From assembly GCA_018672475.1 (NCBI GenBank), contig JABHFS010000154.1, positions 9,640 through 73,639 on the forward strand: DNA of 64,000 nt. The letters run 5' to 3'. The stretch's first letter is position 1. Every line of letters starts with the position of its first letter. Shown one piece after another: positions 3,024-53,330 of this stretch. The position numbers were made by a program, and so were the translations under genes. The notes under the pieces were generated by a model, which was given only the letters and a program-made list of their open reading frames with translations, searched no databases and had not been told where the DNA came from. This DNA comes from Gemmatimonadota bacterium. GTDB taxonomy: Bacteria; Latescibacterota; UBA2968; UBA8231.

Positions 3024-3024
3024 T

Positions 3025-6619: not shown

Positions 6620-6631
6620 TAGAATACCTGG

Positions 6632-7480: not shown

Positions 7481-7539
7481 GGTCGGGGCTCCCTGATGAT
7501 TGGTTTGCGCTATAACGATAAACACAAGCGCTATGTCGT

Positions 7540-9846: not shown

Positions 9847-9910
9847 GTGCGCATTTTCCCTTTGAAGGATGCGTAATAATCCTTGTTGTTCGTCCCCCCG
9901 TCCCTTAGTT

Positions 9911-10000
9911 ATGTTGTTGAAAAAAATACTACTCCCACTATTTATAACCCTTGCAGTCAGTGCCTTCTGTCCTTTATATATACTGCTATTATGTCATTGA
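9911..10000 (+). repeat. partial duplication of the substrate-binding protein 2 start / signal-peptide coding segment (29-codon uORF MLLKKILLPLFITLAVSAFCPLYILLLCH)
   Basis: Nt 9911-9950 and 9991-10030 align at about 32/40 identity (atgttgttgaaaaaaatactact... vs atgtcattgaaaaaaatactact...). Confidence 0.5.
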
Positions 10001-11259: not shown

Positions 11260-12157
11260 TACGAATAATATGCGCAGAAACATGACGCCGTATTATTTCT
11301 TGTTGCCGGCGATGCTGGTCCTAGCGGTGATCATTCTCTACCCGGTCGTTAGTAACCTGATAATGAGCGTTTATAAGGTAAAGCTCTTTCGTGGGGCCGG
11401 TGACGAATTTATCGGCATGACGAACTACGCCAAGCTCTTGGGCAGCCGCACGTTCGTTAATAGCATCTGGAGTTCGGTGCGTTTTACGGTGTATTCGCTG
11501 CCGGTGGCTTTTGTGTTGGGTCTGGGCATGGCGTTGATCTTTAATGAGATTAAGAAATACCGGCCGGTTTTCACGGGCTTCCTGCTGGTGCCCTGGGCCA
11601 TCGCCCCGGTGGTCACCGGTTATATGTGGCGCTGGCTTTTCCACGACACTTTCGGCCTGGTCAACTACGCGCTATTGAGTCTGGGTATTATCGACGCCAA
11701 TATCCCGTGGCTGGCTCAGCCGGATACTGCGGTCGGCGCGGTAGTCGTCGCAAATGTCTGGCGCTTTATGCCTTATATCACCATCATGCTCTTGGCGGGT
11801 TTGCAAGGGGTCTCGACTGAGCTATACGAGGCGGCGCATGTCGACGGGGCCAATATCTTCGAGCGTTTTTTCCACGTGACCTTGCCGCAGCTCAAACACG
11901 TGATCGGGGTGGTTTTCCTCTTCGCCACGATCTGGATGGTCAACGACTTTGCGCTGATCTTCATTATGACCGAAGGCGGCCCGGCCAAGGCGACGCAGGT
12001 GGTACCGATCACAGTCTATCGCATCGCCTTCGAGCATTTGCGCCTGGGCAAGGGCGCGGCGGCGGCACTGATCCTGCTACTCTTTCTGTTGTCGATGAGC
12101 ATGCTCTTTATCCGCGTACTCTTCCGCGAGCAGAGGAAAAAAGCCGATGCGAGTTAA
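11249..12157 (+). CDS. ABC transporter permease (MalF/UgpA-like)
   Basis: Six TM helices with an EAA-type loop (EAAHVDGANIFERFFHVTLPQL). Confidence 0.85.
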   Translation: MTTSTNNMRRNMTPYYFLLPAMLVLAVIILYPVVSNLIMSVYKVKLFRGAGDEFIGMTNYAKLLGSRTFVNSIWSSVRFTVYSLPVAFVLGLGMALIFNEIKKYRPVFTGFLLVPWAIAPVVTGYMWRWLFHDTFGLVNYALLSLGIIDANIPWLAQPDTAVGAVVVANVWRFMPYITIMLLAGLQGVSTELYEAAHVDGANIFERFFHVTLPQLKHVIGVVFLFATIWMVNDFALIFIMTEGGPAKATQVVPITVYRIAFEHLRLGKGAAAALILLLFLLSMSMLFIRVLFREQRKKADAS

Positions 12158-12986
12158 GACGCAGGCCAAGATCCGCACCTGGTTGGCCTATGGCTTGGGC
12201 GGCACATTCGTATTCGCGCTGGTGTTGCCGTTGATCTGGGTGGTAACGACTTCGGTCAGGCCACTTTCCGAGATGACGCAGACACCGCCGTTGATTTTCC
12301 CGCGTTCGATCACCTTCGACGCCTATGTCGATCTGTGGGATACGGGTCCCTTCGCGAAATATTTCATAAATAGCGTGGTGATCTCCTTTTCGACAGCGCT
12401 GATCGCCCTGATCTTTAGCATTTGCGCCGCCTATGCCTTCGCGCGTTTTCGTTTTAAGGGCGCGACCTTGCTGCTGATGGTAGTGGTGATGTCGCAGATG
12501 TTGCCGGGCTCGTCGATTCTGATCCCGCTGTTTCAGGTGATCCGCGCGATGGGGTTGCTCGATACACATGTGGGCATGGTGCTGATCTATACGGGTTTCG
12601 CCATCCCGTTCTGTACCTGGTTGCTCAACGGTTATTTCCGCGCGATCCCGGTCGATCTTGAACAGGCGGCGTTGATCGACGGATGCAATCGGCTAGAACT
12701 GCTCTATATGATTATTTTGCCGCTGGCGGCGCCGGCCATCGTCGCGGTGGGCACGTTCGCTTTTCTGCTTTCCTGGAATGAGTTTTTGTTCGCCTTTGTC
12801 TTTACTAAATCTCAGGCGTTGACAATTCCGGTCGGGTTGCGGGCGGCATTTTTGGGGCAGTACGTCAATAAATACGATCAGTTGTTTGCGGCTTCGTTGA
12901 TCTTTAGTTTGCCGCCGATCGCTTTGTTTGTGGGGTTGCAGCGGTATTTTGTGCAAGGGTTGACAGCAGGGGCGGTGAAGGAGTAA
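12147..12986 (+). CDS. ABC transporter permease (MalG/UgpE-like)
   Basis: EAA motif (EQAALIDGCNRLELLYMIILPLAAPA). The start overlaps the upstream permease gene. Confidence 0.85.
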   Translation: MRVKTQAKIRTWLAYGLGGTFVFALVLPLIWVVTTSVRPLSEMTQTPPLIFPRSITFDAYVDLWDTGPFAKYFINSVVISFSTALIALIFSICAAYAFARFRFKGATLLLMVVVMSQMLPGSSILIPLFQVIRAMGLLDTHVGMVLIYTGFAIPFCTWLLNGYFRAIPVDLEQAALIDGCNRLELLYMIILPLAAPAIVAVGTFAFLLSWNEFLFAFVFTKSQALTIPVGLRAAFLGQYVNKYDQLFAASLIFSLPPIALFVGLQRYFVQGLTAGAVKE

Positions 12987-13005
12987 ATCTGGGGTGCGCC
13001 TCGTG

Positions 13006-13033
13006 CTGCGGGCTGACCGCGGCAGGTATTTTT
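13006..13033 (+). terminator. weak candidate intrinsic terminator after the permease operon
   Basis: Short GC stem (ctgcgg..ccgcggcag) followed by gtattttt. Confidence 0.3.
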
Positions 13034-13954
13034 CAATCCCCCAGGCCGTCGCCCCTCGCAGCGCTTGTGCGCTGACTCACCACAATCCTGCCCGAACCGA
13101 GGCCCTACGTGGCTCGGACCTCATACCCCCCCCTTAAACACTGGCCGCGGCCACCCCCTCCGCTGGGCCAATGCATGAGCTGAGGGTTTTCAGAGATATC
13201 CTAGTGTATCACTTTTTATATTTTGTGATGCACTAAGCCGTAGTAGACCCCTCTTTTATAGCAAGAAGCTTCTGGCCCGCGTCCCGCCATACTCGCCTTT
13301 GCGGAATTGTTAAATACCCTTGAACGCAAGCAACTGGTTTGAATTCAGCAAAAGAGACGGTAAGAAAACTATATGCCCACACTGGATTGGATCGGAAAAA
13401 ACTGTAGCCAAACACCATAAGGATGTGCCTTCTCGGTGTTTGGAGCCGGTAGCAGAACGCACCCCCCGGCAGCGATGTCCACAGTGCAGACAAAGGGCTA
13501 TTTTTTCACCTCTTGAGTTGGATGATGCGAGCGTAGCGATCAGTAAAAATACCCAACAATTTCGATGAGGCGGTAAAACCAGGAAAAGCAAAGAGCGCTC
13601 GTATGGACTCAGGGGGCATCGCGTTTTCCTATATCGAAAAATAAAACCGTTTCTTTCTGTCACAACATGAATAAATCTACTACTATTTCAGGATAACGCT
13701 TTGATTTACATTGGTTTTACCCACACGTTTCCGCGTAGACCCAATTTTATATCTACGCCTCGCCGTACGGAGCTGTAAAAGTTTTTGCAATGATCGCGGA
13801 ACGGGTGAAGGTGGCGGCGCCATCCGCCGAGCAGCACGTTGCGGATTGTTTGCAAGCAGACGTTCGTTTTGGGATACCGCTGGGGCATATAAATATTTAC
13901 GGGGGAATAGACCGTACTTTTACCGAGCTTAGCTTTTAATCGGAGAATTTAACA

Positions 13955-14941
13955 ATGTTAAAGAAACTGCTGCTGTTTTCCTTTGTCGCGCTTATGGCCT
14001 GCGGGCAAGAGGAAAGCGGGCCGAAAAAAATAAAAATCGGCTATGTGATCAACTTTATGTCGCACGAGTGGTACCAAAATATCAGTAAGTCGGCCATCGC
14101 GCGCGCGGCGGAGTTGGATGTCGAACTGCTCGTCGCGGATGCTAACCTCGATGTCGCGGCACAGATTTCTAAGGCCGAGAATTTTCTCGCGCAGGGCGTC
14201 GACGTGTTGATCTTGTCACCGGTCGACGCCAAGGCAATGGGGCCGATCGTGCGCCAGGCTAAGGAGGTCGGCGCGCGCGTCTTCACCGAGTCGAACCCGG
14301 TGCCAGGCGCCGACAGCTATGTCGGAATCGACAACCACGTCGGCGGAGTTAAGGCGGGGGAGTGGTTTGTCGAATATGCCAGGGAGAAGGGGATCGAGCC
14401 CAAGATCCTGGTGATCGGCTTGCCGAACTTTGAGGATTGCCGGCAAAGGGTCGACGGCTTTAAGGAGGCGCTCGAAAAGGGGGGTATGGCCTATGAGATC
14501 GTGCAGGAGGTCGATGGACAGGGGATGAAGGAGAAGGCGTTCAAGGCGGCGCAGGACGCGCTGACGGCGAACCCGCAGATCAATGTGATCTACGGGATCA
14601 ACGACGATTCGACGACCGGCGGTATGGCGGCCTATAAGGCGGCGGGCCTAGACGAGTCGAAGTTGACGGCCATTGGTTTTGGTTTTGAGGGCACGGTGGG
14701 GCAGGCGGCGTTGACCGGCGATACGACCTACCGGGCGGCGCTGGCGATGTTTCCCAATTTTGTTGGCGCGTCTTTGGTCGACGCGGCGGTGAAACTGGCC
14801 AAGGGCGAAGAGTTGCCGCCGCATTACGAGACGCCGACTATCGTGCTTACCCGCGATAATATCGATCAGTTCTACGATCGCAGCACCGAGCCGCCTTTTG
14901 CATTGAAGACGGACGCGGTGCGGGCGATGATGCCAAAATGA
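13955..14941 (+). CDS. periplasmic sugar-binding protein (RbsB/LacI-family fold, CUT2 ABC)
   Basis: Signal peptide plus periplasmic-binding-protein type I pattern (KIGYVINFMSHEWYQNI..., GVDVLILSPVD). Confidence 0.8.
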   Translation: MLKKLLLFSFVALMACGQEESGPKKIKIGYVINFMSHEWYQNISKSAIARAAELDVELLVADANLDVAAQISKAENFLAQGVDVLILSPVDAKAMGPIVRQAKEVGARVFTESNPVPGADSYVGIDNHVGGVKAGEWFVEYAREKGIEPKILVIGLPNFEDCRQRVDGFKEALEKGGMAYEIVQEVDGQGMKEKAFKAAQDALTANPQINVIYGINDDSTTGGMAAYKAAGLDESKLTAIGFGFEGTVGQAALTGDTTYRAALAMFPNFVGASLVDAAVKLAKGEELPPHYETPTIVLTRDNIDQFYDRSTEPPFALKTDAVRAMMPK

Positions 14942-15921
14942 GCAAGATTTTTTCACGGATTTTTCACAGTGAGCAGGCCGGTTTGTTATTGGCGTTGCTC
15001 GTGCTCTGTTTGGTTATTTCGCTGCTGTCGCCAGTTTTTTTCACCGCGATTAATATCAAGAACGTGCTGCGTGACGCCTCGCTGATCGCCATCGCCGGAA
15101 TCGGTATGGTGATGATTATCCTACTCGGTGAGATCGATTTGAGCGTCGGCTCGACGCAGGCGGTGGCTGGGGTCATTGCGGTGGCGGTGCTCAACCAGAT
15201 GGACAGCGTGTGGTGGGCGTTATTGGCGGCGCTATTGGCCGGGGCATTAGTGGGTTTGTGCAATGGGCTGCTGGTGACCAAGGCGGGCATTAATTCGTTG
15301 ATCGCGACGCTGGGCACTATGGCGATTTTGCGCGGCGGGGCGATGGTCAGCACCCAGGCGGTGTCGATCCAGGGCAAGGTCGAAGGTTTTGTCGAGGTGG
15401 GCACTGGGTATTTGGGGCCGGTGCCAATACCGGTGTTATTGGCCTTCTTGCTTTTTGGACTATTCTATTACGTGCTGCACCATACGATTCTCGGCCGGTA
15501 TATATACGCTATCGGCGGCAATATTCAGGCGGCCCGGCTTTCGGGTTTGGCCGTCGACCGCACGCGAGTTCTGGTTTATGTGATCGGTGGGGTGCTGGCG
15601 GCGTTGAGCGCTTTTATTTTGGCCTCGCGGCTCAACTCCGGGCAACCGAACGCGGGTTTGGGTTTTGAGTTACAGGTCATCGCGGCGGTGATCCTCGGCG
15701 GTATTAGTTTGACCGGCGGGATCGGGACTTTGGGTGGGGCCTTTATCGGGATTCTGATCTTGACGGTGCTCTCCAATGGTTTGGTACTGCTCAATGTGTC
15801 GTCCTTTTACCACGATATTGCGCGCGGCGCGGTGATTATCCTGGCGGTATATCTCGATACTCGGCGCAAGCAGAGTTTGCTGCGGCGTCTGTTGGCGCCC
15901 CCATCCGAAAGCAATTCATGA
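14938..15921 (+). CDS. ABC sugar permease (RbsC-like)
   Basis: Branched-chain/ribose permease family topology. ATGA overlap with the upstream substrate-binding-protein gene. Confidence 0.85.
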   Translation: MSKIFSRIFHSEQAGLLLALLVLCLVISLLSPVFFTAINIKNVLRDASLIAIAGIGMVMIILLGEIDLSVGSTQAVAGVIAVAVLNQMDSVWWALLAALLAGALVGLCNGLLVTKAGINSLIATLGTMAILRGGAMVSTQAVSIQGKVEGFVEVGTGYLGPVPIPVLLAFLLFGLFYYVLHHTILGRYIYAIGGNIQAARLSGLAVDRTRVLVYVIGGVLAALSAFILASRLNSGQPNAGLGFELQVIAAVILGGISLTGGIGTLGGAFIGILILTVLSNGLVLLNVSSFYHDIARGAVIILAVYLDTRRKQSLLRRLLAPPSESNS

Positions 15922-17408
15922 CGCCATTAGTTGAGCTCGTCGGTATCCACAAGCGCTTTCCTGGGGTCTATGCACTCAAGGGCGTGGACTTCGACGTGCG
16001 GGCCGGCGAGGTGCACGCGCTGGTCGGCGAAAATGGCGCGGGCAAGAGCACGTTGATAAAGGTCGCGGCCGGGGTGCATGATTTCGAAAAGGGCAGCTAC
16101 CGTATCGCGGGGCAGGCGGTGGATATCCGCCATCCGCGCCAGGCCCTCGACGAGGGTATCGCGGTGGTCTACCAGGAGTTGGAATTGGTCTTGTCGTTGT
16201 CGGTGGCGGAGAATCTATTCTTCGGGCGCTTGCCGCACGATCGCGGTGGCCGGGTGCGTTGGGGCGAGCTCTACGACGAGTCGGAGAAGCTATTGGCGGA
16301 GGTCGGGCTGGAGGTCGATCCCAAGACCAAGGTTGGGCACTTGGGCGTGGCGGCGCAGCAATTGGTCGAGATCGCGCGGGCGTTGTCGTTTGCGGCCAAG
16401 GTGATCATTATGGACGAGCCGACCTCGGCGCTGAGCCCGCGTGAGATCGAGAAACTCTTTGTGCTGGTTGCCCGGCTCAAGGCGCGCGGCGTGGGGCTGG
16501 TCTATGTCTCGCACAAGCTCGACGAGATTATGGCGTTGGCCGACCGAGTCACGGTCTTGCGCGACGGGCAGCGGGTCGCCTGCAAAGAGACCGTCGACCT
16601 CGATGAAGATCGATTGATCGAACTGATGGTCGGGCGCGAGTTGGGGCAGGGTTTTCCCGCCGCCGGGCGCGAGCCGGGTGAAAACGTGTTGGAGGTGCAG
16701 GGGCTGACGACGGATCAGGTGCAGGATATTTCTTTCCGGGTTTGTGCGGGGGAGATCGTTGGTTTTTCTGGATTGATGGGTGCGGGCCGTACCGAATTGG
16801 CGAGGGGCTTGATGGGGGTGGACCGGCGGTTGGCCGGTTCGGTGGTGATTGCGGGGGTGCCGGTGCCGGCTAATAAACCGCCGGCGGCGCGGAATTTGGG
16901 GCTTGGGTTGGTGCCGGAAGATCGGCGGGCAGACGGGGTTTTTGCGCAATTGAGCGTGCGCGAGAACACGAGTGTGGCAGCGCTGGAACAATTCTGCCGT
17001 CTGGGGTATGTGCAGGGTGGGCTTGAGCGGCGGCAAGTGGGCGGGCTGGTGGAGCGGCTCAAGGTGCGCACGCCGGACCAGGAACAGGAGATGGCCAAGC
17101 TCAGTGGCGGCAATCAGCAGAAGGCACTATTGGCCCGTTGGCTGTTAAAAGAAAACCTCAAAGTGTTGCTGATCGACGAGCCGACTCGGGGTATCGATGT
17201 CGGCGCCAAGGCCGAGATTTACCAATTGTTGGACGAATTGGCGCGCGGTGGTTTGGCGGTGGTATTGCTCTCGTCGGAAATGCCGGAGATACTAGGGCTA
17301 TGTGATCGAATTTACGTGATGAGCCAAGGGCGGATCGCCGCCGAATACGGGCGGGCGGAGGCCACGCCGGAAAAGCTTCTGGCCAGTGCCTTGCCGAATG
17401 TATATTGA
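15918..17408 (+). CDS. sugar ABC ATP-binding protein with duplicated ABC domains (RbsA-like)
   Basis: Two Walker A sites (GENGAGKST / GLMGAGRTE) and two signature motifs (LSGGNQQK). Confidence 0.9.
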   Translation: MTPLVELVGIHKRFPGVYALKGVDFDVRAGEVHALVGENGAGKSTLIKVAAGVHDFEKGSYRIAGQAVDIRHPRQALDEGIAVVYQELELVLSLSVAENLFFGRLPHDRGGRVRWGELYDESEKLLAEVGLEVDPKTKVGHLGVAAQQLVEIARALSFAAKVIIMDEPTSALSPREIEKLFVLVARLKARGVGLVYVSHKLDEIMALADRVTVLRDGQRVACKETVDLDEDRLIELMVGRELGQGFPAAGREPGENVLEVQGLTTDQVQDISFRVCAGEIVGFSGLMGAGRTELARGLMGVDRRLAGSVVIAGVPVPANKPPAARNLGLGLVPEDRRADGVFAQLSVRENTSVAALEQFCRLGYVQGGLERRQVGGLVERLKVRTPDQEQEMAKLSGGNQQKALLARWLLKENLKVLLIDEPTRGIDVGAKAEIYQLLDELARGGLAVVLLSSEMPEILGLCDRIYVMSQGRIAAEYGRAEATPEKLLASALPNVY

Positions 17409-17427
17409 ACTCTATGGAGCGGAATAG

Positions 17428-18084
17428 ATGAACGACGGGCAAGAGGGCACAGTGCGGGTATTGCTCAAAGACCAGGCCTATGAGAATCTGAAAAAGCTCA
17501 TTCTCGAAGAGGTGTTCGCGCCGGGGACAGTTCTCTCCGAGCGGCAATTGGCGGCGCGGTTGGATATGAGCAAGACCCCGATCCTCTCGGCGTTAGAGCG
17601 GCTGGAGACGGAGGGGTTTGTCGCGGTGTCGCCGGAGCAGGGGATCGTAGTAAGGGAACCGTCGTTGCGCGAGATCGTTGACCTCTTCGATATTCGCATC
17701 GCGTTGGAGGTTTTTGTAGTGCAGTCGATCGCCGGGCGACTGAACTCCGAGCAGATTAGTCGGCTACAGGCCAACTTGCAGCCGCAAGCCCGGGCCGCGC
17801 AAGCTAAGGATTTGGTTGAGTGTACGCGTTTGGACGCGGATTTTCATTTGCTGCTCTGCGAGTTTTTAGATAACCGAGAGATTCTGCAGGTGATGCGCGG
17901 GTTGCGCGACAAACTGTATCTGGTGGTGCTGGGGTTGGTGCGGTCGGATACGGGGCGGCTGATGATCAGCTATGGGGAACATGAGGCGATTGTCGAGGCG
18001 GTGGTGAAGGGGCAAGGTGAGGAGGCGGCTAGGCGGTCGAAGGAGCATTTGGAATATGGTAAGAACTTTTTAGTAACGCGGTAG
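17428..18084 (+). CDS. GntR-family transcriptional regulator (FadR/FCD subfamily)
   Basis: N-terminal wHTH (LSERQLAARLDMSKTPILSALERLETEGFV) plus a C-terminal FCD-like helical domain. Confidence 0.85.
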   Translation: MNDGQEGTVRVLLKDQAYENLKKLILEEVFAPGTVLSERQLAARLDMSKTPILSALERLETEGFVAVSPEQGIVVREPSLREIVDLFDIRIALEVFVVQSIAGRLNSEQISRLQANLQPQARAAQAKDLVECTRLDADFHLLLCEFLDNREILQVMRGLRDKLYLVVLGLVRSDTGRLMISYGEHEAIVEAVVKGQGEEAARRSKEHLEYGKNFLVTR

Positions 18085-18196
18085 CTAATGGTCGCAGGTC
18101 CTTGCGGGAAACTTCCTGTGTGGGCGAACATTTTGCAGCTATGTATTCGACTTACGACGGAGATATCAGTAAGATATTTCGCAAAAAGGAGGGCAT

Positions 18197-20110
18197 ATGC
18201 CGTCTAAAAAAGTACTCTGCCATGGCGTGGAGGATATGGCGGAGCGGATACAGTTACGGGTGGGGGCGTTGTCGATGATTTTTGAACCGCAATTGGGCTT
18301 TTTGCGCTATATGACTTATGGGGGCAAGGAGATTTTGCGCGGGGTGTATGCGGCGGTGCGTGATCGCAACTGGGGTACGATCGAGCCGCGGGTGAGCATG
18401 GTGGAGTTGCAAGAAGAGGACGAGGGGTTTGTGCTTTCGTTTGATGTTGAGTGCATAAGTGGGGATGTGGATTTTTTCTGGCGGGGGAGAATCGTCGGTG
18501 AGCCGGGGCGGGTGGAGTTTTCGCTGGATGGGATTGCACGAAAGAGTTTTTCCCGTAATCGACTGGGTTTTTCCGTGTTGCATCCGGCAGAGTGCGCAGG
18601 GCTCGCGTGCCGGGTGGGAAAGGTGGACGGCACGGTAGAGGAGGGTGTGTTTCCGCTATTGATATCACCGCACCAGCCCTTTATGGACATGAAGAGCATC
18701 GCGCACGAGGTCGACGGAGTACGGAGCGAGATCACTTTCGCTGGGGATATCTTTGAGATGGAGGACCAGCGCAATTGGACCGATGCTTCGTATAAGACCT
18801 ATTGTACGCCGCTGGCATTGCCCTTTCCGGTCGATGTGGCAGAAGGCGAGGTGATCCAGCAGACGATTGTGATTGAGGTCGAGGGGACAACGGATATCGT
18901 TGATGAGGATCGGGGGTGCGTATTATTGGCGGTGGAGTCGATTGGCGGGGAGAACTTGATGCATATCGGCTTGGGTCTCGCTAGTGACGCGGGGGAGTTG
19001 AGCGAGGTCGAGTTGGCGCGATTACGCGCGTTGAATTTGTCGCATCTGCGTGTGGATTTGCACTTGGCCGAGCAGGGGTGGCAGACTGTGCTGGCCCGTG
19101 CATGGCGGGAAGCCGAGGCTTTGGCCATTGGGCTTGAAGTAGCGATTTTTGTCAGCGATGCGGCGGCGAGGCAACTGGCGGAGCTGGCCGGGGCATTGGA
19201 TGGGGTGGATATTTGTCGAATACTGGTTTTTCACGAAGATGAGAAATCCACGACGGCGGGGTGGGTGAACTTGGCGCGGGAGTATTTGAGCGGGTTGCAG
19301 GTGCCCATCGGCGCGGGCAGTAACGACTATTTTACCGAACTCAACCGCGAGCGGCCGCCGGTTGAGGTGTTGGATTTGGTCAGTTATTCGCTCAACCCGC
19401 AGGTGCACGCCTTTGATGACGTTTCACTGGCTGAAACGCTTATGATGCAGATGGTAGTAGCGCATAGCGCGCGACAGTTTTGCGGCGATTTGCCGCTTTG
19501 CGTGTCGCCTGTGACGCTATTACCGCGTTTTAACCCCAATGTCACCGGCGCGGAGCCCGAGCCGGGTCCAGGCGATTTACCGCCGCAAGTTGACGTGCGG
19601 CAGATGTCGCTTTTTGGCGCGGGGTGGACGGCGCTCAGCCTGAAGTATTTGGCTTTGCGGGGGGTGGCGAGCAGCACTTATTACGAGACGAGCGGTTGGC
19701 GCGGGGTAATGGAACGCGCGGAAGGCTCGGCGCTGCCGGAGGTTTTTCAGTCGATCGCCGGGGCCGTCTTTCCGCTCTACCACGTATTGGCCGATGTGGG
19801 CGAATATGCGGGTGGCAAGGTCTTTCCGGTGCATACTAGTGACCTGTTGCGGGTCGACGGAGTGGCGTTGGTCAAGGGCGAGCGGCGGCGGCTTTTGCTG
19901 GTCAATCTGACGGGGGAGACCGTGGCGGTACAGATCTCGGGTTGGACTGGGGCGGCGTATGTGGTGCAGCTCGACGAACGCAATGTCGAGCGGGCGATGA
20001 GCGAGCCCGAGGTGTTTCGCGCGGAGCAGGGGGTGCGGTATGTGCGAGTCGAGTCGCTTGATCTGTTGCCCTATGCGGTGACGCGTGTCGATTTGGAGGT
20101 GGATTCGTGA
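18197..20110 (+). CDS. conserved-looking protein of unknown function (637 aa)
   Basis: Long ORF with coding-like composition in the same orientation as the flanking operon. No family was recognised by eye; the central part has TIM-barrel-like alternation. Confidence 0.6.
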   Translation: MPSKKVLCHGVEDMAERIQLRVGALSMIFEPQLGFLRYMTYGGKEILRGVYAAVRDRNWGTIEPRVSMVELQEEDEGFVLSFDVECISGDVDFFWRGRIVGEPGRVEFSLDGIARKSFSRNRLGFSVLHPAECAGLACRVGKVDGTVEEGVFPLLISPHQPFMDMKSIAHEVDGVRSEITFAGDIFEMEDQRNWTDASYKTYCTPLALPFPVDVAEGEVIQQTIVIEVEGTTDIVDEDRGCVLLAVESIGGENLMHIGLGLASDAGELSEVELARLRALNLSHLRVDLHLAEQGWQTVLARAWREAEALAIGLEVAIFVSDAAARQLAELAGALDGVDICRILVFHEDEKSTTAGWVNLAREYLSGLQVPIGAGSNDYFTELNRERPPVEVLDLVSYSLNPQVHAFDDVSLAETLMMQMVVAHSARQFCGDLPLCVSPVTLLPRFNPNVTGAEPEPGPGDLPPQVDVRQMSLFGAGWTALSLKYLALRGVASSTYYETSGWRGVMERAEGSALPEVFQSIAGAVFPLYHVLADVGEYAGGKVFPVHTSDLLRVDGVALVKGERRRLLLVNLTGETVAVQISGWTGAAYVVQLDERNVERAMSEPEVFRAEQGVRYVRVESLDLLPYAVTRVDLEVDS

Positions 20111-20408
20111 GTGGTCTGAGAAGTGGGTTGGTCGGTTGCGCTGGGCGCCGATTATGAGTTGACGGTGGTGCGGGGAGCCCGAGGTGCACAAGCAGCGAGT
20201 ACCGCCGCTCGAGCGGGCTTGGAGCGAAGCGCCGGGCACGGCGATACAGAGATAGCGTGGTCGCTGACCCAACAGCATTGCGTCGACGCGTTGCGGGCGG
20301 GAGAGTCGCCCGAGACTTCTGCAGCCGATAACTTGCGCACGTTAGAATGGGTCTTCGGCGCCTATGTATCCGCGGCAACGGGTCTGCCTTATCGTATGGG
20401 AGAATCAA

Positions 20409-21662
20409 ATGGCGACTGAACGCGTCATAGCGACGTATCTGATCGAAACGCCGTATTCGCTACAAGAAGCGGCAGAGGTATTGGCCGGTGAGCAGTCGAG
20501 TGGGACTTTTGTTTCAGTGCCGGGGGAGACCGATGAATTGCGGGAAAGATTCCGGGCGAGATTGGAATCGCTGCAAGAATTAGAGCCGGTGGCCGAGCCG
20601 AGTTTGCCCGGGGGAAAAGTGCCGGAGGGTGTTGCCCAATATCGCCGGGCGCGGATTGAGGTTTCCTTTTCCCTGGAGAATATGGGGGTTAACTTGCCGA
20701 CGCTTGTCGCCACGGTGGCGGGCAATCTTTTTGAGCTGCGCGAGTTTTCCGGGCTCAAGTTATTGGATATAGAACTACCGCAGGATTTTGTTGCCCGCTA
20801 TCCGGGTCCACAATTCGGCATCGCGGGCACCAGGCAATTGGCCGGGGTGGAAGCACGACCGTTGATTGGTACTATCGTCAAACCGAGTGTGGGGCTGAGT
20901 CCGGCGCAGACGGCTGAGTTGGCCGGGGAGTTGGCCGGGGCGGGCATCGATTTTATTAAAGACGACGAATTGATGGCCGACCCGCCGCACTCTCCACTCA
21001 AAGAGCGGGTAGAGGCGGTGATGAAGGTCCTCAATAAGCACGCCGATAAGACGGGAAAGAAGGTGATGTATGCCTTTAATATCAGCGATTCGCTGGAGGC
21101 AATGTATCGCCACCACGATATCGTGCAGGCGGCGAGTGGCACCTGCGTGATGGTCAGTTTGAACAGTGTGGGGTTGGCGGGGGTCGAGGCTTTGCGTGGC
21201 CGGGCGAGTTTGCCGATCCACGGGCACCGTAATGGTTGGGGCATGTTGAACCGGCACCCGGCGTTGGGTATTGAGTTTACGGCCTATCAGAAGCTGTGGC
21301 GTCTGGCCGGTGTCGACCATCTGCACGTCAATGGTCTGCAGAACAAATTCTCCGAATCCGACGAGTCGGTAGTGCGTTCGATCAAGGCCTGTCTCGAACC
21401 CTTCTTGGGGGGGTATCATCTGATGCCGGTGATCTCCTCGGGACAATGGGGTGGCCAGGCGCCGGAGACCTATCAATTGACCAAGACGGTCGATCTGATG
21501 TATCTGGCCGGTGGCGGCATGATGGCGCACCCCGGGGGGCCGGCGGCGGGTTGTGCGGCGATCCGCCAGGCGTGGGCGGCGGCGGTTAAGGGGGTCGAAC
21601 TCGCCGACTATGCCCGCGAACACGAAGAGCTACGGCTCTCAATTGAGAAATTTGGAGGCTGA
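20409..21662 (+). CDS. RuBisCO-like protein (form IV RLP, RuBisCO large-subunit homolog)
   Basis: GTIVKPSVGLS (RuBisCO KPKLGLS), DFIKDDE (K201/D203/E204), IHGHRNGW (H294/R295), DHLHVNGLQNKF (K334 loop 6) and LAGGGMMAHPGG (C-terminal phosphate site). RBS gggaga 7 nt upstream. No rbcS, prk or cbb genes nearby. Confidence 0.85.
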   Translation: MATERVIATYLIETPYSLQEAAEVLAGEQSSGTFVSVPGETDELRERFRARLESLQELEPVAEPSLPGGKVPEGVAQYRRARIEVSFSLENMGVNLPTLVATVAGNLFELREFSGLKLLDIELPQDFVARYPGPQFGIAGTRQLAGVEARPLIGTIVKPSVGLSPAQTAELAGELAGAGIDFIKDDELMADPPHSPLKERVEAVMKVLNKHADKTGKKVMYAFNISDSLEAMYRHHDIVQAASGTCVMVSLNSVGLAGVEALRGRASLPIHGHRNGWGMLNRHPALGIEFTAYQKLWRLAGVDHLHVNGLQNKFSESDESVVRSIKACLEPFLGGYHLMPVISSGQWGGQAPETYQLTKTVDLMYLAGGGMMAHPGGPAAGCAAIRQAWAAAVKGVELADYAREHEELRLSIEKFGG

Positions 21663-22597
21663 TGAACTATCGCAAGGCAGTGCGCGCGGGGATCGAGTTG
21701 TCGCAGGTGGGTTTGGGCTGTAACCGTTTGGGAGAAGAAGGCAAGGACGATCGGCATTGGATCGATTTGGTACAACGCGCAGTCGAATTGCGGATTAATA
21801 TTTTTGATACGGCGCAAGGGTATGGCGGCGGTCGCAGCGAGCAGATCTTGGGCCAGGCCCTGGGCAATCGCGACGACGTGTATGTGGCGAGCAAGATCGG
21901 CCATAGCGAGGGGGGCTTTACGCCGGAAGAAATGGCGCGGAAAATCGAGATGAGCCTGACCCGGCTCCAACGGGATCGTGTCGATATACTGCAATTGCAC
22001 AGCCCGAGCCGCGAGGAACTCGAGCGTTATGATTGGGCCGAGGGCATGCAGCGGTTGCAGGATGCGGGCAAGGTCGGTTTTAAGGCGATGGCGTTGGATT
22101 CAGTCGAGTCGGCGGTGTGGCTGATCCGGCAGGATGTCGTCGATTTTATGCAGATCACCTATAACATTTTTGATATCGAGGCCGAGCACGAGCTCTTTGC
22201 CTTGGCCGAAGAAAAGGGAGTGGCGTTGCTGTGTCGTTTGCCGCTCGCGCAGGGAGTGCTGACGGGTAAATTTTCGCCCGGGCGGGATATGGGCGATCAT
22301 CGCGCGCGCTTTTCGGGGCCGCGGTTGGCCGCCAGGGTTGAAATGGCCGAGACGCTCAGACCATTGGCTGAGGCCTATCCCGGCGGGATGACGCGGTTGG
22401 CACACGATTTCAGCTTAGGGCCTGTCGCGACGACCTGTATTATCCCCGGCGCGCGGGATGTGGTGCAATTGGAGGAGAATACGGCGGCGGGCGAGGGCAC
22501 GGGTGTCGATGCGGCCACACGGGCCGAGGTCGAGCAATTGCGCCGGACTTGGGGTGAGTGGGCGGGCGGGTATTGGTTCCCGCAACAGCCGGCGTAA
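21662..22597 (+). CDS. aldo/keto reductase
   Basis: AKR signature (IFDTAQGYGGGRSEQILGQAL) and the start overlaps the RLP stop codon. Confidence 0.85.
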   Translation: MNYRKAVRAGIELSQVGLGCNRLGEEGKDDRHWIDLVQRAVELRINIFDTAQGYGGGRSEQILGQALGNRDDVYVASKIGHSEGGFTPEEMARKIEMSLTRLQRDRVDILQLHSPSREELERYDWAEGMQRLQDAGKVGFKAMALDSVESAVWLIRQDVVDFMQITYNIFDIEAEHELFALAEEKGVALLCRLPLAQGVLTGKFSPGRDMGDHRARFSGPRLAARVEMAETLRPLAEAYPGGMTRLAHDFSLGPVATTCIIPGARDVVQLEENTAAGEGTGVDAATRAEVEQLRRTWGEWAGGYWFPQQPA

Positions 22598-23964
22598 TGG
22601 ATCTGCGGCTCGGTTTTTACGGTGATGATTTTACCGGCTCGACCGATGCGTTGGAGGCGCTAAGCACGGCGGGTTTGCGCACGGTGCTTTTTATTGAGCC
22701 GCCGACTGCGGAACAGTTGGCGCGTTTTCCGGGTTTAGAGGCGGTAGGAGTAGCGGGGCGCACGCGTTCGTTGGCGACGGGGGATATTTCGGCTGAACTC
22801 AGGCCGGTTTTTGCGCGTTTCGCCGAGTTGGGCTGTCCGCTGGTTCACTACAAAACCTGTTCGACCTTTGATTCTTCGCCCGAGGTAGGCAGTATCGGGC
22901 GGGCTATTGATGTGGGGCAGGAGATTTTTGCCTCGCCATTTGTGCCACTGGTCGTGGGCGCACCGGTGTTGCAGCGCTTTTGTGTCTTCGGCAATCTCTT
23001 TGCGCGCTCGGGGCTCGATAGCGAGATCTTTCGCCTGGACCGGCACCCGACGATGCGCCAGCATCCGGTTACGCCGATGCACGAAGCGGATCTGCGCTTG
23101 CACCTTGGGCGGCAGACCGAGCGGCAGATCGGGCTTTTTGATGTGCAGGCGCTTGCTTTATCGCAACGCGAAAGGGAGGTGGCACTCGACGCTCTATTGG
23201 CCGAAGGCGCGGAGATCGTGCTATTCGATGTATTGACCGATGAGCACTTGCAGCGCATTGGTCAATTGCTTTCCACGCGGGCGGAGCCCGGTAAGACCTT
23301 ATTCGTCGCCGGGTCGTCGGGGATCGAATATGCGTTGTGCCAATATTGGGGGGTGGGTAATTCGCAACTCCCGGCCGGCGGCGCAGCGGTGGATCATGCG
23401 CTGGTGGTGTCGGGCAGTTGTTCGCCGGTGACCGAGCGACAGATCGCGCGGGCGCTGACCAAGGGCTTTGCCGGTGTAGCGGCCGATACGGCACTTTTGG
23501 TCCAAGGCGGACCGGTAGCGGAGGCCGAGACGGCGCGCTTGGTGGTGGAGAGTTTAAAGGCGCTCGAAGCGGGAAAAAGTCCCTTGGTGCATACGGCTCT
23601 GGGGCCTGCAGACGAACGAATCGGTGCGACGGCGGCGAAACTTCAGGCGATGGGCTATGATCTCTTAGATCTCAAGTTGAAAAGCGGCGAGATCTTCGGT
23701 CGGGTGCTTGGCAATATAGTGCAGACGATTTTTGCGGGCACGGGGCTTCGTCGCGCGTGTGTAGCCGGCGGTGACACTTCGACCTATGCGGCGCGGCAAT
23801 TGCGCATCGAAGCTCTGGAGATGGTCGGGCCGATGGCGCCGGGCTCGCCGCTGTGTCGGGTTTCCGCAGCGAACGGAGTAATCGACGGAGCTGAAATCAC
23901 GTTTAAAGGTGGCCAGGTGGGGCGCGACGACTTTTTTACTTCTGTATTGAAAGGAAAACCATGA
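22597..23964 (+). CDS. four-carbon acid-sugar kinase family protein (DUF1537 N-domain + DUF2090 C-domain; OtnK/OiaK-like)
   Basis: N-terminal LGFYGDDFTGSTDALEAL motif typical of DUF1537 kinases. The start is coupled to the AKR stop by a taATGg overlap. Confidence 0.8.
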   Translation: MDLRLGFYGDDFTGSTDALEALSTAGLRTVLFIEPPTAEQLARFPGLEAVGVAGRTRSLATGDISAELRPVFARFAELGCPLVHYKTCSTFDSSPEVGSIGRAIDVGQEIFASPFVPLVVGAPVLQRFCVFGNLFARSGLDSEIFRLDRHPTMRQHPVTPMHEADLRLHLGRQTERQIGLFDVQALALSQREREVALDALLAEGAEIVLFDVLTDEHLQRIGQLLSTRAEPGKTLFVAGSSGIEYALCQYWGVGNSQLPAGGAAVDHALVVSGSCSPVTERQIARALTKGFAGVAADTALLVQGGPVAEAETARLVVESLKALEAGKSPLVHTALGPADERIGATAAKLQAMGYDLLDLKLKSGEIFGRVLGNIVQTIFAGTGLRRACVAGGDTSTYAARQLRIEALEMVGPMAPGSPLCRVSAANGVIDGAEITFKGGQVGRDDFFTSVLKGKP

Positions 23965-24803
23965 CAGATAAAACAACGGTAGCTATTTTCGGCGCGGCCG
24001 GCAGTATGGGGACGCGTTCTTCGAATGCGCTCAAAAACGATTTGGTCTATGATGTGCTCTATGTGGAGGCTGGCAAGGAGGGAATGGCTCGGTTGCGCGA
24101 GCGGGGTGTGGAGCCGACAGAGCAGGCGGTGGCGCTCAAACAGGCTGAAGTGATCGTGCTGGCGGTGCCCGACGCGCTGATCGCTACTGTCGCTGCCGAG
24201 ATTGTGCCCGAGATGCAGAGCGGGGCGATGCTGATTGGGCTTGATCCGGCTGCACCACATGCTGGGCGTCTGCCCGAGCGCCAGGACGTGAGCTATTTCT
24301 TTTCACACCCTTCGCACCCGCCGATCTTCAACGACGAGACGGAAGCCGAGGCGCGCAGGGATTTTTTTGGCGGTGTGGCGAAGCAGTCGATCGTCAGCGC
24401 CCTATTGCAGGGGCCGGAAGAAGATTATGCCAAGGGCGAGGTGATCGCCAGCAAGCTCTTCGGGCCGATCCTGCGTTCGCACCGGATCAGCATCGAGCAG
24501 ATGGCGATCTTGGAGCCAGCGCTTTCCGAGACGGTGACGGCGACCTGTTTGACGGTGATCCGCGAGGCGCTGGACGAGGCGGTCAAGAGGGGTGTGCCGG
24601 CCGAGGCGGCGCGGGATTTCCTTTTGGGCCACCTCAACGTCGAGCTGGCGATTCTCTTCGACGAGATCGACTGGGAGTTGTCGGACGGGGCGAAGGAGGC
24701 GGTCGCCGACGCGATGCCGGTTATTTTCCAGCCGGATTGGAAGAAGGTCTTTGATGCCGAGCAGCTACTGGTGTCTACACGCAAGATCACTGAGATCAAA
24801 TAG
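23961..24803 (+). CDS. NAD(P)-binding dehydrogenase (6-phosphogluconate/3-hydroxyisobutyrate dehydrogenase-like Rossmann fold)
   Basis: VAIFGAAGSMG glycine-rich motif followed by AEVIVLAVPD. ATGA overlap with the kinase gene. The C-terminal half is divergent. Confidence 0.55.
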   Translation: MTDKTTVAIFGAAGSMGTRSSNALKNDLVYDVLYVEAGKEGMARLRERGVEPTEQAVALKQAEVIVLAVPDALIATVAAEIVPEMQSGAMLIGLDPAAPHAGRLPERQDVSYFFSHPSHPPIFNDETEAEARRDFFGGVAKQSIVSALLQGPEEDYAKGEVIASKLFGPILRSHRISIEQMAILEPALSETVTATCLTVIREALDEAVKRGVPAEAARDFLLGHLNVELAILFDEIDWELSDGAKEAVADAMPVIFQPDWKKVFDAEQLLVSTRKITEIK

Positions 24804-24811
24804 GCGAGGTT

Positions 24812-25909
24812 ATGAAAGAGACGATATTGCAGTTCGGTGGTGGCAAGTTCCTGCGCTCCTTTGCTGATTTCTTCGTGCACGAGGCCAACCAAGCCGGGCA
24901 GGAGGTCGGACAGGTCGTGGTGGTGCAATCGACCGATAGTCCACGCGCGCAGTGGCTCAACGCGCAGCAGGGGAAATACCAGGTTTTGGTGCGTGGGTTG
25001 GTGGAAGGCGGACAGGTCGATGAGGCGCGGGAGATCGCTAGTATCAGCCGGGCGTTGGTCGCGAGCCAGCAATGGCCCGAAGTGCTGCAGGTGGCGAGAT
25101 CGGCCGATTTGCGGTGGATCGTCTCGAATGTGACTGAGGCGGGTTATGGTCTCGATGCGGGAGATGTGATCGAGGCGCCGCGTAGCTTTCCTGCCAAGCT
25201 AACGGCGGTGCTCAAGGCGCGTTTTGACGCGGATTTGCCGGGGTTGCCGATTTTGCCCTGCGAATTGATTGCGGAGAATGGCGAGCGATTATTGGAATTA
25301 GTGTTGCAACAGGTGGCGCATTGGAAACTAGAAGATAAATTCGTCGATTGGCTGGGTGGCCAATGTATCTGGCCGAACGCGTTGGTCGACCGCATTGTCA
25401 GCTCGCCGCCCGACGATCATCCGCTGCTGGCGGCGGATCCGTTGCTGGCAGTGGCTGAGCCCTTTGCGCTGTGGGCGATTGAGGAATTCGAAGGTGTAGA
25501 CCTCTTTGAGCATCCGGCGATAAAACTCGTCGACGATGTAGAACCCTATGCGCTGCGCAAGGTGCGGATTTTGAATGGCGCGCATCAGGCATTGGTCTGC
25601 CGCGCGTTAAATCGCTTCGCGACGGTGCGCGAGGCGCTGGCCGACGCGGAGACCGAGGCTTGGTTGCAACAGTTGCTGGCCGCAGAGATCGTGCCGGTGG
25701 TTGATGCGCGTGTCGAGGGGGCTTCGGCTTTTGCCCAGGAAACGATGCAGCGTTTCGCCAATCCTTTCCTCGACCACAAGCTGAGCGATATCGCCGTCTA
25801 TCACGAGCAGAAGATCGAGACGCGGTTGATGCCGACTTATCGCGAATACAAGCAGCACTTTGGTCAAGAGCCGGTGTTACTGAGCGAGATTCTCAAGCCC
25901 TTTTTGTAG
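24812..25909 (+). CDS. mannitol dehydrogenase family oxidoreductase (altronate/tagaturonate reductase UxaB-like), shorter than UxaB
   Basis: Blocks align with E. coli UxaB: ILQFGGGKFLRSF, RWIVSNVTEAG, ILPCELIAENGERLLELVL, NALVDRIV, KVRILNGAHQALV. Confidence 0.75.
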   Translation: MKETILQFGGGKFLRSFADFFVHEANQAGQEVGQVVVVQSTDSPRAQWLNAQQGKYQVLVRGLVEGGQVDEAREIASISRALVASQQWPEVLQVARSADLRWIVSNVTEAGYGLDAGDVIEAPRSFPAKLTAVLKARFDADLPGLPILPCELIAENGERLLELVLQQVAHWKLEDKFVDWLGGQCIWPNALVDRIVSSPPDDHPLLAADPLLAVAEPFALWAIEEFEGVDLFEHPAIKLVDDVEPYALRKVRILNGAHQALVCRALNRFATVREALADAETEAWLQQLLAAEIVPVVDARVEGASAFAQETMQRFANPFLDHKLSDIAVYHEQKIETRLMPTYREYKQHFGQEPVLLSEILKPFL

Positions 25910-26075: not shown

Positions 26076-26378
26076 TTAGGCTTCGGTGTATGGCTTGTAA
26101 TCGATTTCTATAAAGTCGGCGACCTCGGGGATCCAGCGGGTTTCGACGAACTGCACGTGTAGCGGATGTGCGTTGTAGGTTTGATAGTCTTCCTCTGAAG
26201 CGAATTCCATCGACAGGCCAAAGTCGTAATTGTTCTTTTTGCTGGTCTGACGCAGAGCCTCGAAGTTTTTTACCACCGGAATATCTGTGGCCAGTTTTTG
26301 CGCTGAGCGAAGGAAGTCGAGCTCGGCCTCGGATCCTGCGGCGTGTTTGAGTTTGAAGACTACGGTGTGGCGAATCAT
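26076..26378 (-). CDS. Dabb (stress-responsive dimeric alpha/beta-barrel) domain protein
   Basis: 100 aa: MIRHTVVFKLK...NAHPLHVQFVE, the typical Dabb pattern. Confidence 0.7.
   Translation of the reverse strand: MIRHTVVFKLKHAAGSEAELDFLRSAQKLATDIPVVKNFEALRQTSKKNNYDFGLSMEFASEEDYQTYNAHPLHVQFVETRWIPEVADFIEIDYKPYTEA

Positions 26379-53253: not shown

Positions 53254-53330
<77 letters not shown>

Follow-up and report, generated by a model that had tools for sequence, protein, structure and literature searches.

Organisation of the locus

The window, that is, the whole 64,000-nucleotide stretch of DNA analysed here, carries on its plus strand a ribose-type ABC importer, a GntR/FCD regulator, a 637-aa protein and further enzyme genes (Table 1). 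The open reading frame of the 637-aa protein comprises 637 codons with an ATG start at exactly 18197-20110, and a strong ribosome-binding site (AAGGAGG) lies 5 nt ahead of the start codon. The GC content of this frame by codon position (0.65/0.42/0.69) follows the same pattern as that of the flanking genes, and independent gene callers arrived at the same 637-aa call on four public contigs (L001-L004) with an identical protein, from whose gene calls the RLP start at 20409 was also taken. At least 23 contigs, spread over 36 collection blocks, carry the identical protein. Its homologs number more than 6,700 at E<=1e-5, and there are 5,272 representative clusters when a 50% identity level is used, which is far beyond chance. 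The 637-aa ORF is thus a real gene, as the initial annotation had it when describing a large, coding-like frame on the same strand as the importer, GntR and RLP genes, with the regulator on its 5' side and the RLP on its 3' side. Neither an unrelated housekeeping family nor a lack of homologs with poor codon statistics, which that annotation had named as grounds for abandoning its view, was encountered.

We also considered whether the gene might be a decaying or non-functional copy, as in the 77% relative (L089) the gene for the lactonase homolog is broken into pieces of 535 and 95 aa, and a truncated aldo-keto reductase (AKR) of 174 aa is left. The frame in the window is nevertheless intact, of full length and well equipped for translation, its product is conserved without change over the contigs mentioned above, and it keeps 42/42 of the residues that are invariant across clades (see below), so that a pseudogene was rejected and decay appears scarcely credible.

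Promoter and terminator scans of the 12.9-26.5 kb region returned nothing above shuffled expectation, and comparison with Rfam identified no RNA element within the operon or close to it. The sole clean hairpin in the scanned region lies at 13004-13024, after the upstream transporter.

Table 1. Genes of the operon and predicted features of the 637-aa protein
Feature	Position	Strand	Evidence
Periplasmic sugar-binding protein, ribose-type ABC importer (Peripla_BP_4)	13955..14941	+	PF13407, E 3.6e-44
ABC importer permease (BPD_transp_2)	14938..15921	+	PF02653, E 2.8e-41; RbsC/AraH-like in NCBIfam
ABC importer ATPase, two ATP-binding domains	15918..17408	+	PF00005, 2 stretches; AraG/RbsA-like, 568 and 545 bits
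GntR/FCD transcriptional regulator	17428..18084	+	Pfam GntR + FCD
Putative divergent D-apionate lactonase (ApnL family), 637 aa	18197..20110	+	Pfam, NF049900
RuBisCO-like protein (RLP), OiaX homolog	20409..21662	+	NF042437 (OiaX), E 8.4e-156, 518.9 bits (cutoff 700)
Aldo-keto reductase (AKR)	21662..22597	+	PF00248, E 1.6e-41
DUF1537-type four-carbon acid sugar kinase, OiaK (3-oxo-isoapionate kinase) homolog	22597..23964	+	NF042436, E 1.4e-134, 449.2 bits (cutoff 700)
PGDH_C-family NAD(P) oxidoreductase, D-apionate oxidoisomerase (ApnO) homolog	23961..24803	+	PF16896, E 2e-58
Short mannitol-dehydrogenase-family (tagaturonate-reductase-like) oxidoreductase, last operon gene	24812..25909	+	PF01232 + PF08125; NF002969, 341 bits (cutoff 359)
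Mutarotase-like N-domain of 637-aa protein	residues 1-230		AF2 model, all-beta
(beta/alpha)8 barrel, clan GH-A-type	residues ~255-500		AF2 model
C-terminal beta-sandwich	residues ~540-637		AF2 model
LRVDLHL	residues 284-290		predicted strand 283-289
AIFVSD	residues 316-321		predicted strand 312-319
ILVFHED	residues 342-348		predicted strand 339-346
IGAGSN	residues 371-376		predicted strand 371-374

OiaX and OiaK are the best NCBIfam matches of their respective genes, although both scores stay under the cutoffs. The OiaX score of the RLP far exceeds that of any RuBisCO or MtnW model in NCBIfam, and the kinase, which carries the Pfam domains SBD_N and NBD_C, scores 449.2 bits with OiaK versus 188 bits with 3-oxo-tetronate kinase. 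The ApnO homolog shares 54% identity over 275 aa with an S. meliloti pSymB protein named 'D-apionate oxidoisomerase'. The sugar-binding protein shares no more than 26% identity (over 202 aa) with that of the rhizobial apiose cluster, too low to inform, and its probable ligand is taken from context only. Homologs of ApnO, OiaK and OiaX are thus co-encoded with the 637-aa protein, as expected of a lactonase of the oxidative D-apiose pathway, whose partners would be ApnO, OiaK and an RLP (OiaX or OiaT), or else OiaC, and the link of its gene to a transporter/RLP/DUF1537 cluster proposed in the initial annotation is real.

Assignment of the 637-aa protein to the ApnL family

Although the protein had initially been described as being of unrecognisable family, precomputed Pfam matches (E<=1e-5) place all three domains Apionate_lact_N/M/C (PF25837, PF25838, PF25839), in this order, on the identical sequence, as well as on P0001. 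A Pfam scan with an older model set gave no match even at E<=10 for either the 637-aa ORF or a homolog labelled D-apionolactonase, because PF25837-9 are absent from that model set and not because the family is missing. In addition, the NCBIfam model NF049900 (D-apionate lactonase, ApnL) matched with E 1.5e-87 and 294.5 bits over profile positions 13-593 of 595, a score below the equivalog cutoff of 750 bits. Relatives likewise stay under this cutoff (350 bits for P0054 and 310 bits for P0003), and the whole clade behaves in this way, while S. meliloti ApnL passes it as a control with 834.6 bits. Homologs at 54-55% identity bear the JGI name D-apionolactonase, NCBI and UniRef call members of the canonical clade D-apionate lactonase, and P0340 represents a natural Gfo/Idh/MocA-ApnL fusion.

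BLASTP comparison with S. meliloti ApnL, for which the pSymB replicon of strain RCAM1750 (gene table from PLSDB) served as reference, revealed 33% identity (216/646, E 6e-74) in a collinear alignment of residues 12-633 with residues 14-638. The two proteins share the three-domain architecture, a similar length (637 versus 639 aa), the motifs FEMEDQRNWTD.SYKTY, YFTELNR and NPxVHAxD, and the residues R444, D466, R468 and W477. The genes of both are also found together with those for ApnO and a ribose-type ABC importer, the S. meliloti cluster consisting of ApnO, ABC importer, ApsD and ApnL. In contrast, the barrel motifs HLRVDL, FHxxEKS, YS.NP and YYETxGW of the window protein read HLxxHFD, SPSVDRQS, HCTNP and TLSTLAG in canonical ApnL, the dehydrogenase of the operon is an AKR instead of a Gfo/Idh/MocA protein, and the host is an uncultured marine bacterium, known from a MAG labelled Gemmatimonadota or Latescibacterota, instead of a rhizobium. 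The lactonase is also much more divergent from its rhizobial counterpart than ApnO is (33% versus 54% identity), which counts against the ApnL assignment, and the best plasmid-borne homologs of the RLP (58-63%) and the kinase (46-49%) are much closer than the lactonase is to rhizobial ApnL. Judged by sequence comparison, the 637-aa protein is a distant member of a catalogued family, and in this respect the finding is largely ordinary. Of the three activities initially suggested for it (lactonase, epimerase or dehydratase), lactonase is the one that matches the family.

Predicted fold and conserved residues

The AlphaFold2 (AF2) model of the 637-aa protein (pLDDT 89.9, pTM 0.91) predicts a glycosidase-like fold for the ApnL family, with a mutarotase-like N-domain followed by a clan GH-A-type barrel and a beta-sandwich. 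Both structural expectations of the initial annotation are borne out by this model, as the N-terminal part, said to be beta-rich over about 200 aa, is modelled as all-beta, and the four motifs regarded as TIM-barrel-like sit on strands of the predicted (beta/alpha)8 barrel (Table 1). The 42 residues that are invariant across the window clade and canonical ApnL are all present in the protein and include E187, E189, D190, R192, W194, D196, K200, N383, H404, R444, D466 and R468, while six barrel residues that the window clade conserves (R285, D287, H346, E349, Y397 and E497) are replaced in canonical ApnL. Sequence searches against the PDB yielded chance matches only, both with the single sequence (Hfq, E~0.8) and with a 34-sequence profile (a de novo protein, E 0.78), and no solved structure of any ApnL-family member was found. 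Our literature search on ApnL/apionolactonase likewise found nothing on structure, mechanism or defined catalytic residues, nor an assay of any member of the window clade.

If function followed the fold and not the family name, the protein could be a sugar mutarotase or a glycoside hydrolase, the latter for example freeing apiose from an apioside after its import. The model does resemble clan GH-A hydrolases with a C-terminal beta-sandwich, such as GH79 heparanase/beta-glucuronidase (5bwi), GH51 arabinofuranosidase (2vrk) and GH30 xylanases, but this is a likeness of fold and not membership, with 10-14% identity to these enzymes, 9-14% to any GH and no profile-level relation; identity to aldose 1-epimerase/galactose mutarotase-like domains (3nre, 3mwx) and to the N-domains of GH97, GH36 and GH31 is about 10%. 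Moreover, the catalytic Glu pair of clan GH-A, an acid/base after barrel strand 4 and a nucleophile after strand 7, has no conserved counterpart here: no Glu follows AF2 strand 434-439, E349 after AF2 strand 339-346 is conserved in the window clade only, and neither strand ends in an acidic residue that both clades keep. The family is named for lactone hydrolysis (EC 3.1.1.115), and its members repeatedly adjoin, and in one case are fused to, a lactone-making dehydrogenase. A glycosidase was rejected for want of a conserved catalytic Glu pair, and we regard this explanation as very improbable; the 637-aa protein would hydrolyse an ester (lactone) bond and not a glycoside.

L-Fucono-1,5-lactonases of the COG3618 amidohydrolase type and the SMP30/gluconolactonase beta-propellers hydrolyse the aldonolactone formed by a sugar 1-dehydrogenase. 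They would thus play the same pathway role as the 637-aa protein on unrelated folds, and searches of Pfam, NCBIfam and the PDB matched it to neither COG3618 nor SMP30. A reference on L-fuconolactonase is cited within PMC12994016.

Genome context in relatives and the dehydrogenase

All three nearest relatives (77%, 62% and 60%) carry lactonase, dehydrogenase, RLP, DUF1537 kinase and PGDH_C genes, and the operon arrangement is kept in P0002, P0003 and P0005. The mannitol-dehydrogenase-family gene recurs in the P0002 and P0005 clusters but in 0/80 of the more distant loci, a wider sample of 80 genome loci with 40-54% homologs of the 637-aa protein. Within this sample, tblastn detected PGDH_C genes in 19/80, RLP genes in 14/80 and OiaK genes in 12/80 loci, and neighbour clustering recovered Gfo/Idh/MocA genes in 19/80 and apiosidase-like genes (PF13204) in 8/80; a GntR/FCD gene adjoins the lactonase homolog in 16/80. 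Because only 15 of the 45 loci with full flanks carry RLP, OiaK, PGDH_C or apiosidase genes, the clade may not be isofunctional; others of these full-flank loci combine the lactonase homolog with SDR genes, or with a 2-hydroxyacid dehydrogenase and an HpcH aldolase.

No Gfo/Idh/MocA dehydrogenase of the ApsD type, the usual partner of ApnL, is encoded inside the operon. The only homolog nearby is weak (29% identity) and lies 12 kb off on the other strand at 31828-32790. In the relatives P0003 and P0005, a Gfo/Idh/MocA dehydrogenase gene adjoins the lactonase gene in the operon and there is no AKR. Among the solved relatives of the window AKR are L-galactose dehydrogenases, whose products are 1,4-lactones, and the AKR probably serves in place of ApsD as the sugar 1-dehydrogenase forming the lactone.

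These observations bear on whether the protein, as a lactonase of this family, might act on another sugar lactone, such as a pentono- or tetronolactone or a ring isomer of apionolactone, and so belong to a paralogous specificity group instead of being an ApnL ortholog. The sub-threshold NF049900 score, the residues peculiar to the clade at barrel positions 285, 287, 346, 349, 397 and 497, the many clade members beside SDR or 2-hydroxyacid dehydrogenase and HpcH aldolase genes with no RLP, OiaK or ApnO nearby, and the candidate upstream dehydrogenase being an AKR and not ApsD would all suit such an enzyme. However, for ApnO, OiaK and OiaX, homologs of which the window operon encodes, all substrates described so far stem from D-apionate. 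In the nearest relatives the lactonase occurs together with these three enzymes and a Gfo/Idh/MocA dehydrogenase, and apiosidase-like genes adjoin in eight loci of the clade. We consider a different lactone unlikely as the substrate in the window.

Proposed role in D-apiose catabolism

D-Apiose is a branched pentose of plant and seagrass cell walls, where it occurs in rhamnogalacturonan-II and apiogalacturonan. Its RLP-type catabolic pathway was worked out in Proteobacteria, the primary paper reportedly being that of Carter et al. 2018. The pathway steps and EC numbers are listed in PMC11747546 and PMC12994016, with ApnL as EC 3.1.1.115, and the lactonase of the oxidative pathway takes the second step, after a sugar 1-dehydrogenase (PMC11747546). 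The initial proposal that the 637-aa protein catalyses the first committed step does not agree with this order.

With family membership and conservation in relatives based on homology, the fold on the AF2 model and the operon make-up on gene context, we assign a probability of about 75% to the reading that the 637-aa protein is a cytoplasmic ApnL-family lactonase, which would convert D-apionolactone to D-apionate as step two of an oxidative D-apiose operon. The substrate, the part played by the AKR and the lactonase chemistry are inferred as follows. D-Apiose would be taken up by the ribose-type ABC system and oxidised at C1 to D-apionolactone by an NAD(P)+ dehydrogenase, probably the AKR, after which the 637-aa protein would hydrolyse the lactone ring to give D-apionate. 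The ApnO homolog would then form 3-oxo-isoapionate, the OiaK homolog would phosphorylate it, and the OiaX-like RLP would decarboxylate the OiaK product to L-erythrulose 1-phosphate and CO2, with the GntR/FCD protein as the probable regulator of the operon. We surmise that water is activated where the barrel has a polar pocket on its C-terminal face, lined by H283, N383, H404, R444, D466 and R468, and that the invariant N-domain segment F186-EMEDQRNWTD-SYKT-T201 may form a cap over this pocket.

Implications

The sister clade of ApnL to which the window protein belongs is very large and widespread, with members in Chloroflexota, Acidobacteriota, Poribacteria, Latescibacterota, Verrucomicrobiota and Planctomycetota. 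Considering its remodelled pocket (R285, D287, H346, E349, Y397 and E497) and its often non-apiose partners, we tentatively raise the rather doubtful possibility that it harbours lactonases of new specificity or an undescribed aldolase-type apionate route, that the AKR of the window lineage is perhaps a non-orthologous D-apiose 1-dehydrogenase, and that the family is a lactonase built on a glycosidase scaffold, with a clan GH-A-like barrel and a mutarotase-like domain. The AKR is in any case a candidate for an AKR-type apiose dehydrogenase, and the ApnL family, with its predicted glycosidase-like fold, would be a sensible choice for studies of structure and mechanism. A modest gain would be the better annotation of thousands of 'hypothetical proteins' that fall under the NCBIfam cutoff. 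If the proposed role is true, an uncultured marine bacterium catabolises D-apiose via the RLP pathway, and this pathway reaches well beyond the Proteobacteria.

Gene and family assignment

The gene for the 637-aa protein is real. Its ORF (637 codons, ATG start) is preceded by AAGGAGG and has GC contents of 0.65/0.42/0.69 at the three codon positions, matching the neighbouring genes. Gene calls on at least 23 public contigs contain the identical protein, flanked by genes in unchanged order; these contigs come from, among others, NCBI MAG GCA_018662265.1 and several marine metagenome assemblies in ENA. At E≤1e-5 the homologs number more than 6,700, and an exhaustive HMMER search with the protein yielded 5,272 clusters (50% identity), of which 2,578 have E≤1e-30. 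Composition, start context and homolog counts thus confirm the large plus-strand coding ORF described in the initial annotation.

The family, which that annotation had called unrecognisable, can be named: precomputed annotation of the identical sequence places it in the Pfam Apionate_lact family through three recent models, PF25837 (Apionate_lact_N), PF25838 (Apionate_lact_M) and PF25839 (Apionate_lact_C), and its sole NCBIfam match is NF049900, 'D-apionate lactonase ApnL' (E 1.5e-87, profile positions 13-593 of 595). The score lies below the curated equivalog cutoff (294.5 vs 750 bits); the positive control, a Sinorhizobium meliloti pSymB megaplasmid homolog retrieved by tblastn, reached 834.6 bits. 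The clade of this homolog is named 'D-apionate lactonase' in databases, and its cluster runs NAD(P)-binding protein, ribose-type ABC importer, Gfo/Idh/MocA oxidoreductase and ApnL homolog, the partner genes carrying the database names 'D-apionate oxidoisomerase' and 'D-apiose dehydrogenase'. Homology to this canonical ApnL is full-length (residues 12-633, E 6e-74). Identity to the rhizobial enzyme is only 33%, as against 54% for the ApnO homolog (PGDH_C family) of the same operon, and the best plasmid-borne homologs of its RuBisCO-like protein (RLP) and kinase are 58-63% and 46-49% identical. We therefore regard the lactonase as a divergent family member whose ApnL function is probable, not proven. 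The initial guess of a lactonase was right.

Operon organization and proposed pathway

All genes of the operon lie on the plus strand, most overlapping or closely spaced (see table). The canonical ApnL partners ApnO, OiaK and RLP are all present beside the lactonase, whereas the usual partner ApsD, the D-apiose dehydrogenase, is absent from the operon. The OiaK model fits the DUF1537 kinase best, at 449.2 bits, against 188 bits for that of 3-oxo-tetronate kinase. Promoter and terminator scans across the operon gave nothing above chance.

Table. Features of the window and of related loci
Locus	Feature	Position	Strand	Remark
Window	CUT1-type ABC system	8515-12986	+	separate, directly upstream of apiose operon
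Window	SBP_bac_1-type binding protein, CUT1-type system	8515-9846	+	gene calls
Window	SBP_bac_1-type binding protein, CUT1-type system	9883-11259	+	confirmed
Window	Hairpin	13004-13024		closes CUT1-type system
Window	Apiose operon	13955-25909	+
Window	Ribose-type ABC importer	13955-17408	+
Window	GntR/FCD regulator	17428-18084	+
Window	Lactonase homolog	18197-20110	+
Window	Lactonase-RLP gap	20111-20408		298 bp, largest in operon
Window	98-aa ORF	20123-20419	+	GTG start, in the gap
Window	RLP, OiaX-type	20409-21662	+
Window	Aldo-keto reductase (AKR)	21662-22597	+
Window	DUF1537 kinase	22597-23964	+	best model OiaK, 3-oxo-isoapionate kinase
Window	PGDH_C-family oxidoreductase	23961-24803	+	ApnO homolog
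Window	Short mannitol-dehydrogenase-family protein	24812-25909	+	365 aa, last in operon
Window	Dabb	26076-26378	-
Window	Class-V aminotransferase	26448-27575	-
Window	Weak Gfo/Idh/MocA homolog	31828-32790	-	29% identity to those beside ApnL homologs
Window	HpcH-type aldolase	38408-39214	-	32% identity
Window	tRNA	52482-52555	-
Window	tRNA	53257-53330	-
L087	Gfo/Idh/MocA (ApsD-type)	10875-11906
L088	Gfo/Idh/MocA (ApsD-type)	10937-11500
L088	Split transketolase and Ldh_2-family gene	5878-7700	-	upstream of P0005 cluster
L088	Mannitol-dehydrogenase-like	16000-17133
L089	Split lactonase	2984-4894		535 aa and 95 aa
L089	AKR	6223-6747		174 aa
L089	Mannitol-dehydrogenase-like	8978-10075
L090	RLP and kinase	9998-13323		63% and 49% identity

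Imported D-apiose would be oxidized to its lactone by an NAD(P)+-dependent 1-dehydrogenase, and the window protein, working like the sugar-acid lactonases that act after such enzymes, would most likely hydrolyse D-apionolactone to D-apionate. The lactonase would take the second step, not the first committed one as initially supposed. Its N-terminus is not signal peptide-like, so the protein is cytoplasmic. D-apionate would then pass through ApnO, OiaK and OiaX to L-erythrulose 1-phosphate and CO2. L-erythrulose 1-phosphate is the final product tied to EC 4.1.1.121. The D-apiose pathway steps appear in PMC12994016, which credits Carter et al. (2018). The importer's binding protein shares only 26% identity with its counterpart in the rhizobial apiose cluster, so the imported ligand stays putative.

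The candidate 1-dehydrogenase of the window operon is the AKR. Solved relatives of this protein include L-galactose dehydrogenases, which convert an aldose to a 1,4-lactone, and in the operons of the relatives P0003 and P0005 a Gfo/Idh/MocA dehydrogenase is present and the AKR absent. The AKR may be a non-orthologous replacement of ApsD. The mannitol-dehydrogenase-family protein, which elsewhere carries the annotation altronate dehydrogenase or tagaturonate reductase, does not fit into the apiose pathway as described; its gene recurs in two near relatives.

Two of the four public assemblies of the locus have the 98-aa ORF among their gene calls, and it has no Pfam match; the matching gap in the 77% relative measures only ~76 bp. 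Upstream, a CUT1-type system that also has two BPD_transp_1 permeases ends in the only clean terminator-like hairpin of the region, and a gap of ~930 bp with no long ORF separates it from the operon. The operon end is met convergently by genes for a Dabb (stress-responsive alpha/beta barrel) protein and an aminotransferase, both kept in the identical contigs and the latter shared with the 77% relative. At the gathering threshold, Rfam matched nothing in the 64 kb apart from two tRNAs far downstream.

Conservation in near relatives

The core operon is kept in the three closest relatives. P0002 (77% identity) has the window gene order, AKR and mannitol-dehydrogenase-like genes included; P0003 (62%) has lactonase, Gfo/Idh/MocA, RLP, kinase and PGDH_C genes in this order, as does P0005 (60%), with a short Gfo/Idh/MocA gene and, further on, a mannitol-dehydrogenase-like gene. 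The split lactonase and short AKR at the P0002 locus (L089) could stem from frameshifts, assembly errors or gene decay. Next to the P0005 cluster and divergent from it, the split transketolase (N-terminal and pyrimidine-binding/C-terminal subunits) is reminiscent of non-oxidative apiose catabolism, whose apulose-4-phosphate transketolase has two subunits.

Predicted fold and active site

An AlphaFold2 model (45 homologs; pLDDT 89.9, pTM 0.91) predicts an all-beta N-terminal domain (1-230), in line with the beta-rich N-terminus suggested initially, a (beta/alpha)8 barrel (~255-500), on whose strands all four previously quoted motifs fall, and a C-terminal beta-sandwich (~540-637). The modelled scaffold is glycosidase-like. 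In an alignment of the window clade with canonical ApnL, 42 positions are invariant, including R55, W59, R122, H129 and the segment E187-E189-D190-Q191-R192-W194-D196-K200 in the N-domain and N383, H404, R444, D466, R468 and W477 in the barrel, and no GH-A-type catalytic glutamate pair is conserved. On these grounds we propose that the C-terminal face of the barrel carries a polar pocket, which may activate water for ester hydrolysis and may be capped by the invariant N-domain loop. R285, D287, H346, E349, Y397 and E497 are conserved in the window clade only and replaced in canonical ApnL.

Genomic contexts of the wider clade

Homologs of 40-54% identity were compared at 80 loci, all from MAGs (Poribacteria, Latescibacterota, Chloroflexota, Acidobacteriota, Verrucomicrobiota, Planctomycetota and others). 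Within ±10 kb, tblastn detected PGDH_C at 19/80 loci, RLP at 14/80 and the kinase at 12/80, and neighbour clustering (±7 kb) gave Gfo/Idh/MocA proteins at 19/80, xylose-isomerase-like TIM barrels at 10/80 and apiosidase-like PF13204 proteins at 8/80. An RLP, kinase, PGDH_C or apiosidase gene occurs in 15 of the 45 flank-complete loci (at least 7 kb each side), or in 21 if Gfo/Idh/MocA and xylose-isomerase-like genes are counted too; the others have SDRs, a 2-hydroxyacid dehydrogenase with an HpcH aldolase (6 loci), or nothing recognisable. Given these mixed neighbourhoods, the apiose link is not universal in the wider clade, though strong for the protein of the window and for its close relatives.

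At L006, L014, L024, L035, L046 and L081, 2-hydroxyacid dehydrogenase and HpcH/HpaI-type aldolase genes adjoin the ApnL-family gene, and no RLP, kinase or ApnO gene lies near it; such neighbourhoods could belong to another pathway for sugar acids or to a branch of apionate metabolism not yet described. Apiosidase-like genes adjoin it at L007, L009, L018, L032, L034, L050, L070 and L078, the L007 representative also having DUF5060 and Collagen_bind_2 domains; the 64-kb window contains none. A natural Gfo/Idh/MocA-ApnL fusion, P0340 (966 aa, on an ENA contig of 79,852 bp; PF01408, PF22725 and Apionate_lact domains), provides Rosetta-stone evidence that dehydrogenase and lactonase work together. 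The closest plasmid-borne RLP and kinase (L090, Rufibacter tibetensis plasmid NZ_CP012644.1) are accompanied by an Asp/Glu-racemase-family gene in a locus for pectin degradation (GH28, pectinesterase, TonB receptor), with no ApnL-family gene within 10 kb.

Earlier descriptions exist of this family, of the pathway and of the gene-cluster logic, so the finding itself is ordinary. What remains new is a glycosidase-like scaffold for a lactonase type of which neither structure nor mechanism is on record, a large sub-threshold clade whose pocket is remodelled and whose genomic contexts are mixed, and an AKR that may stand in for ApsD.
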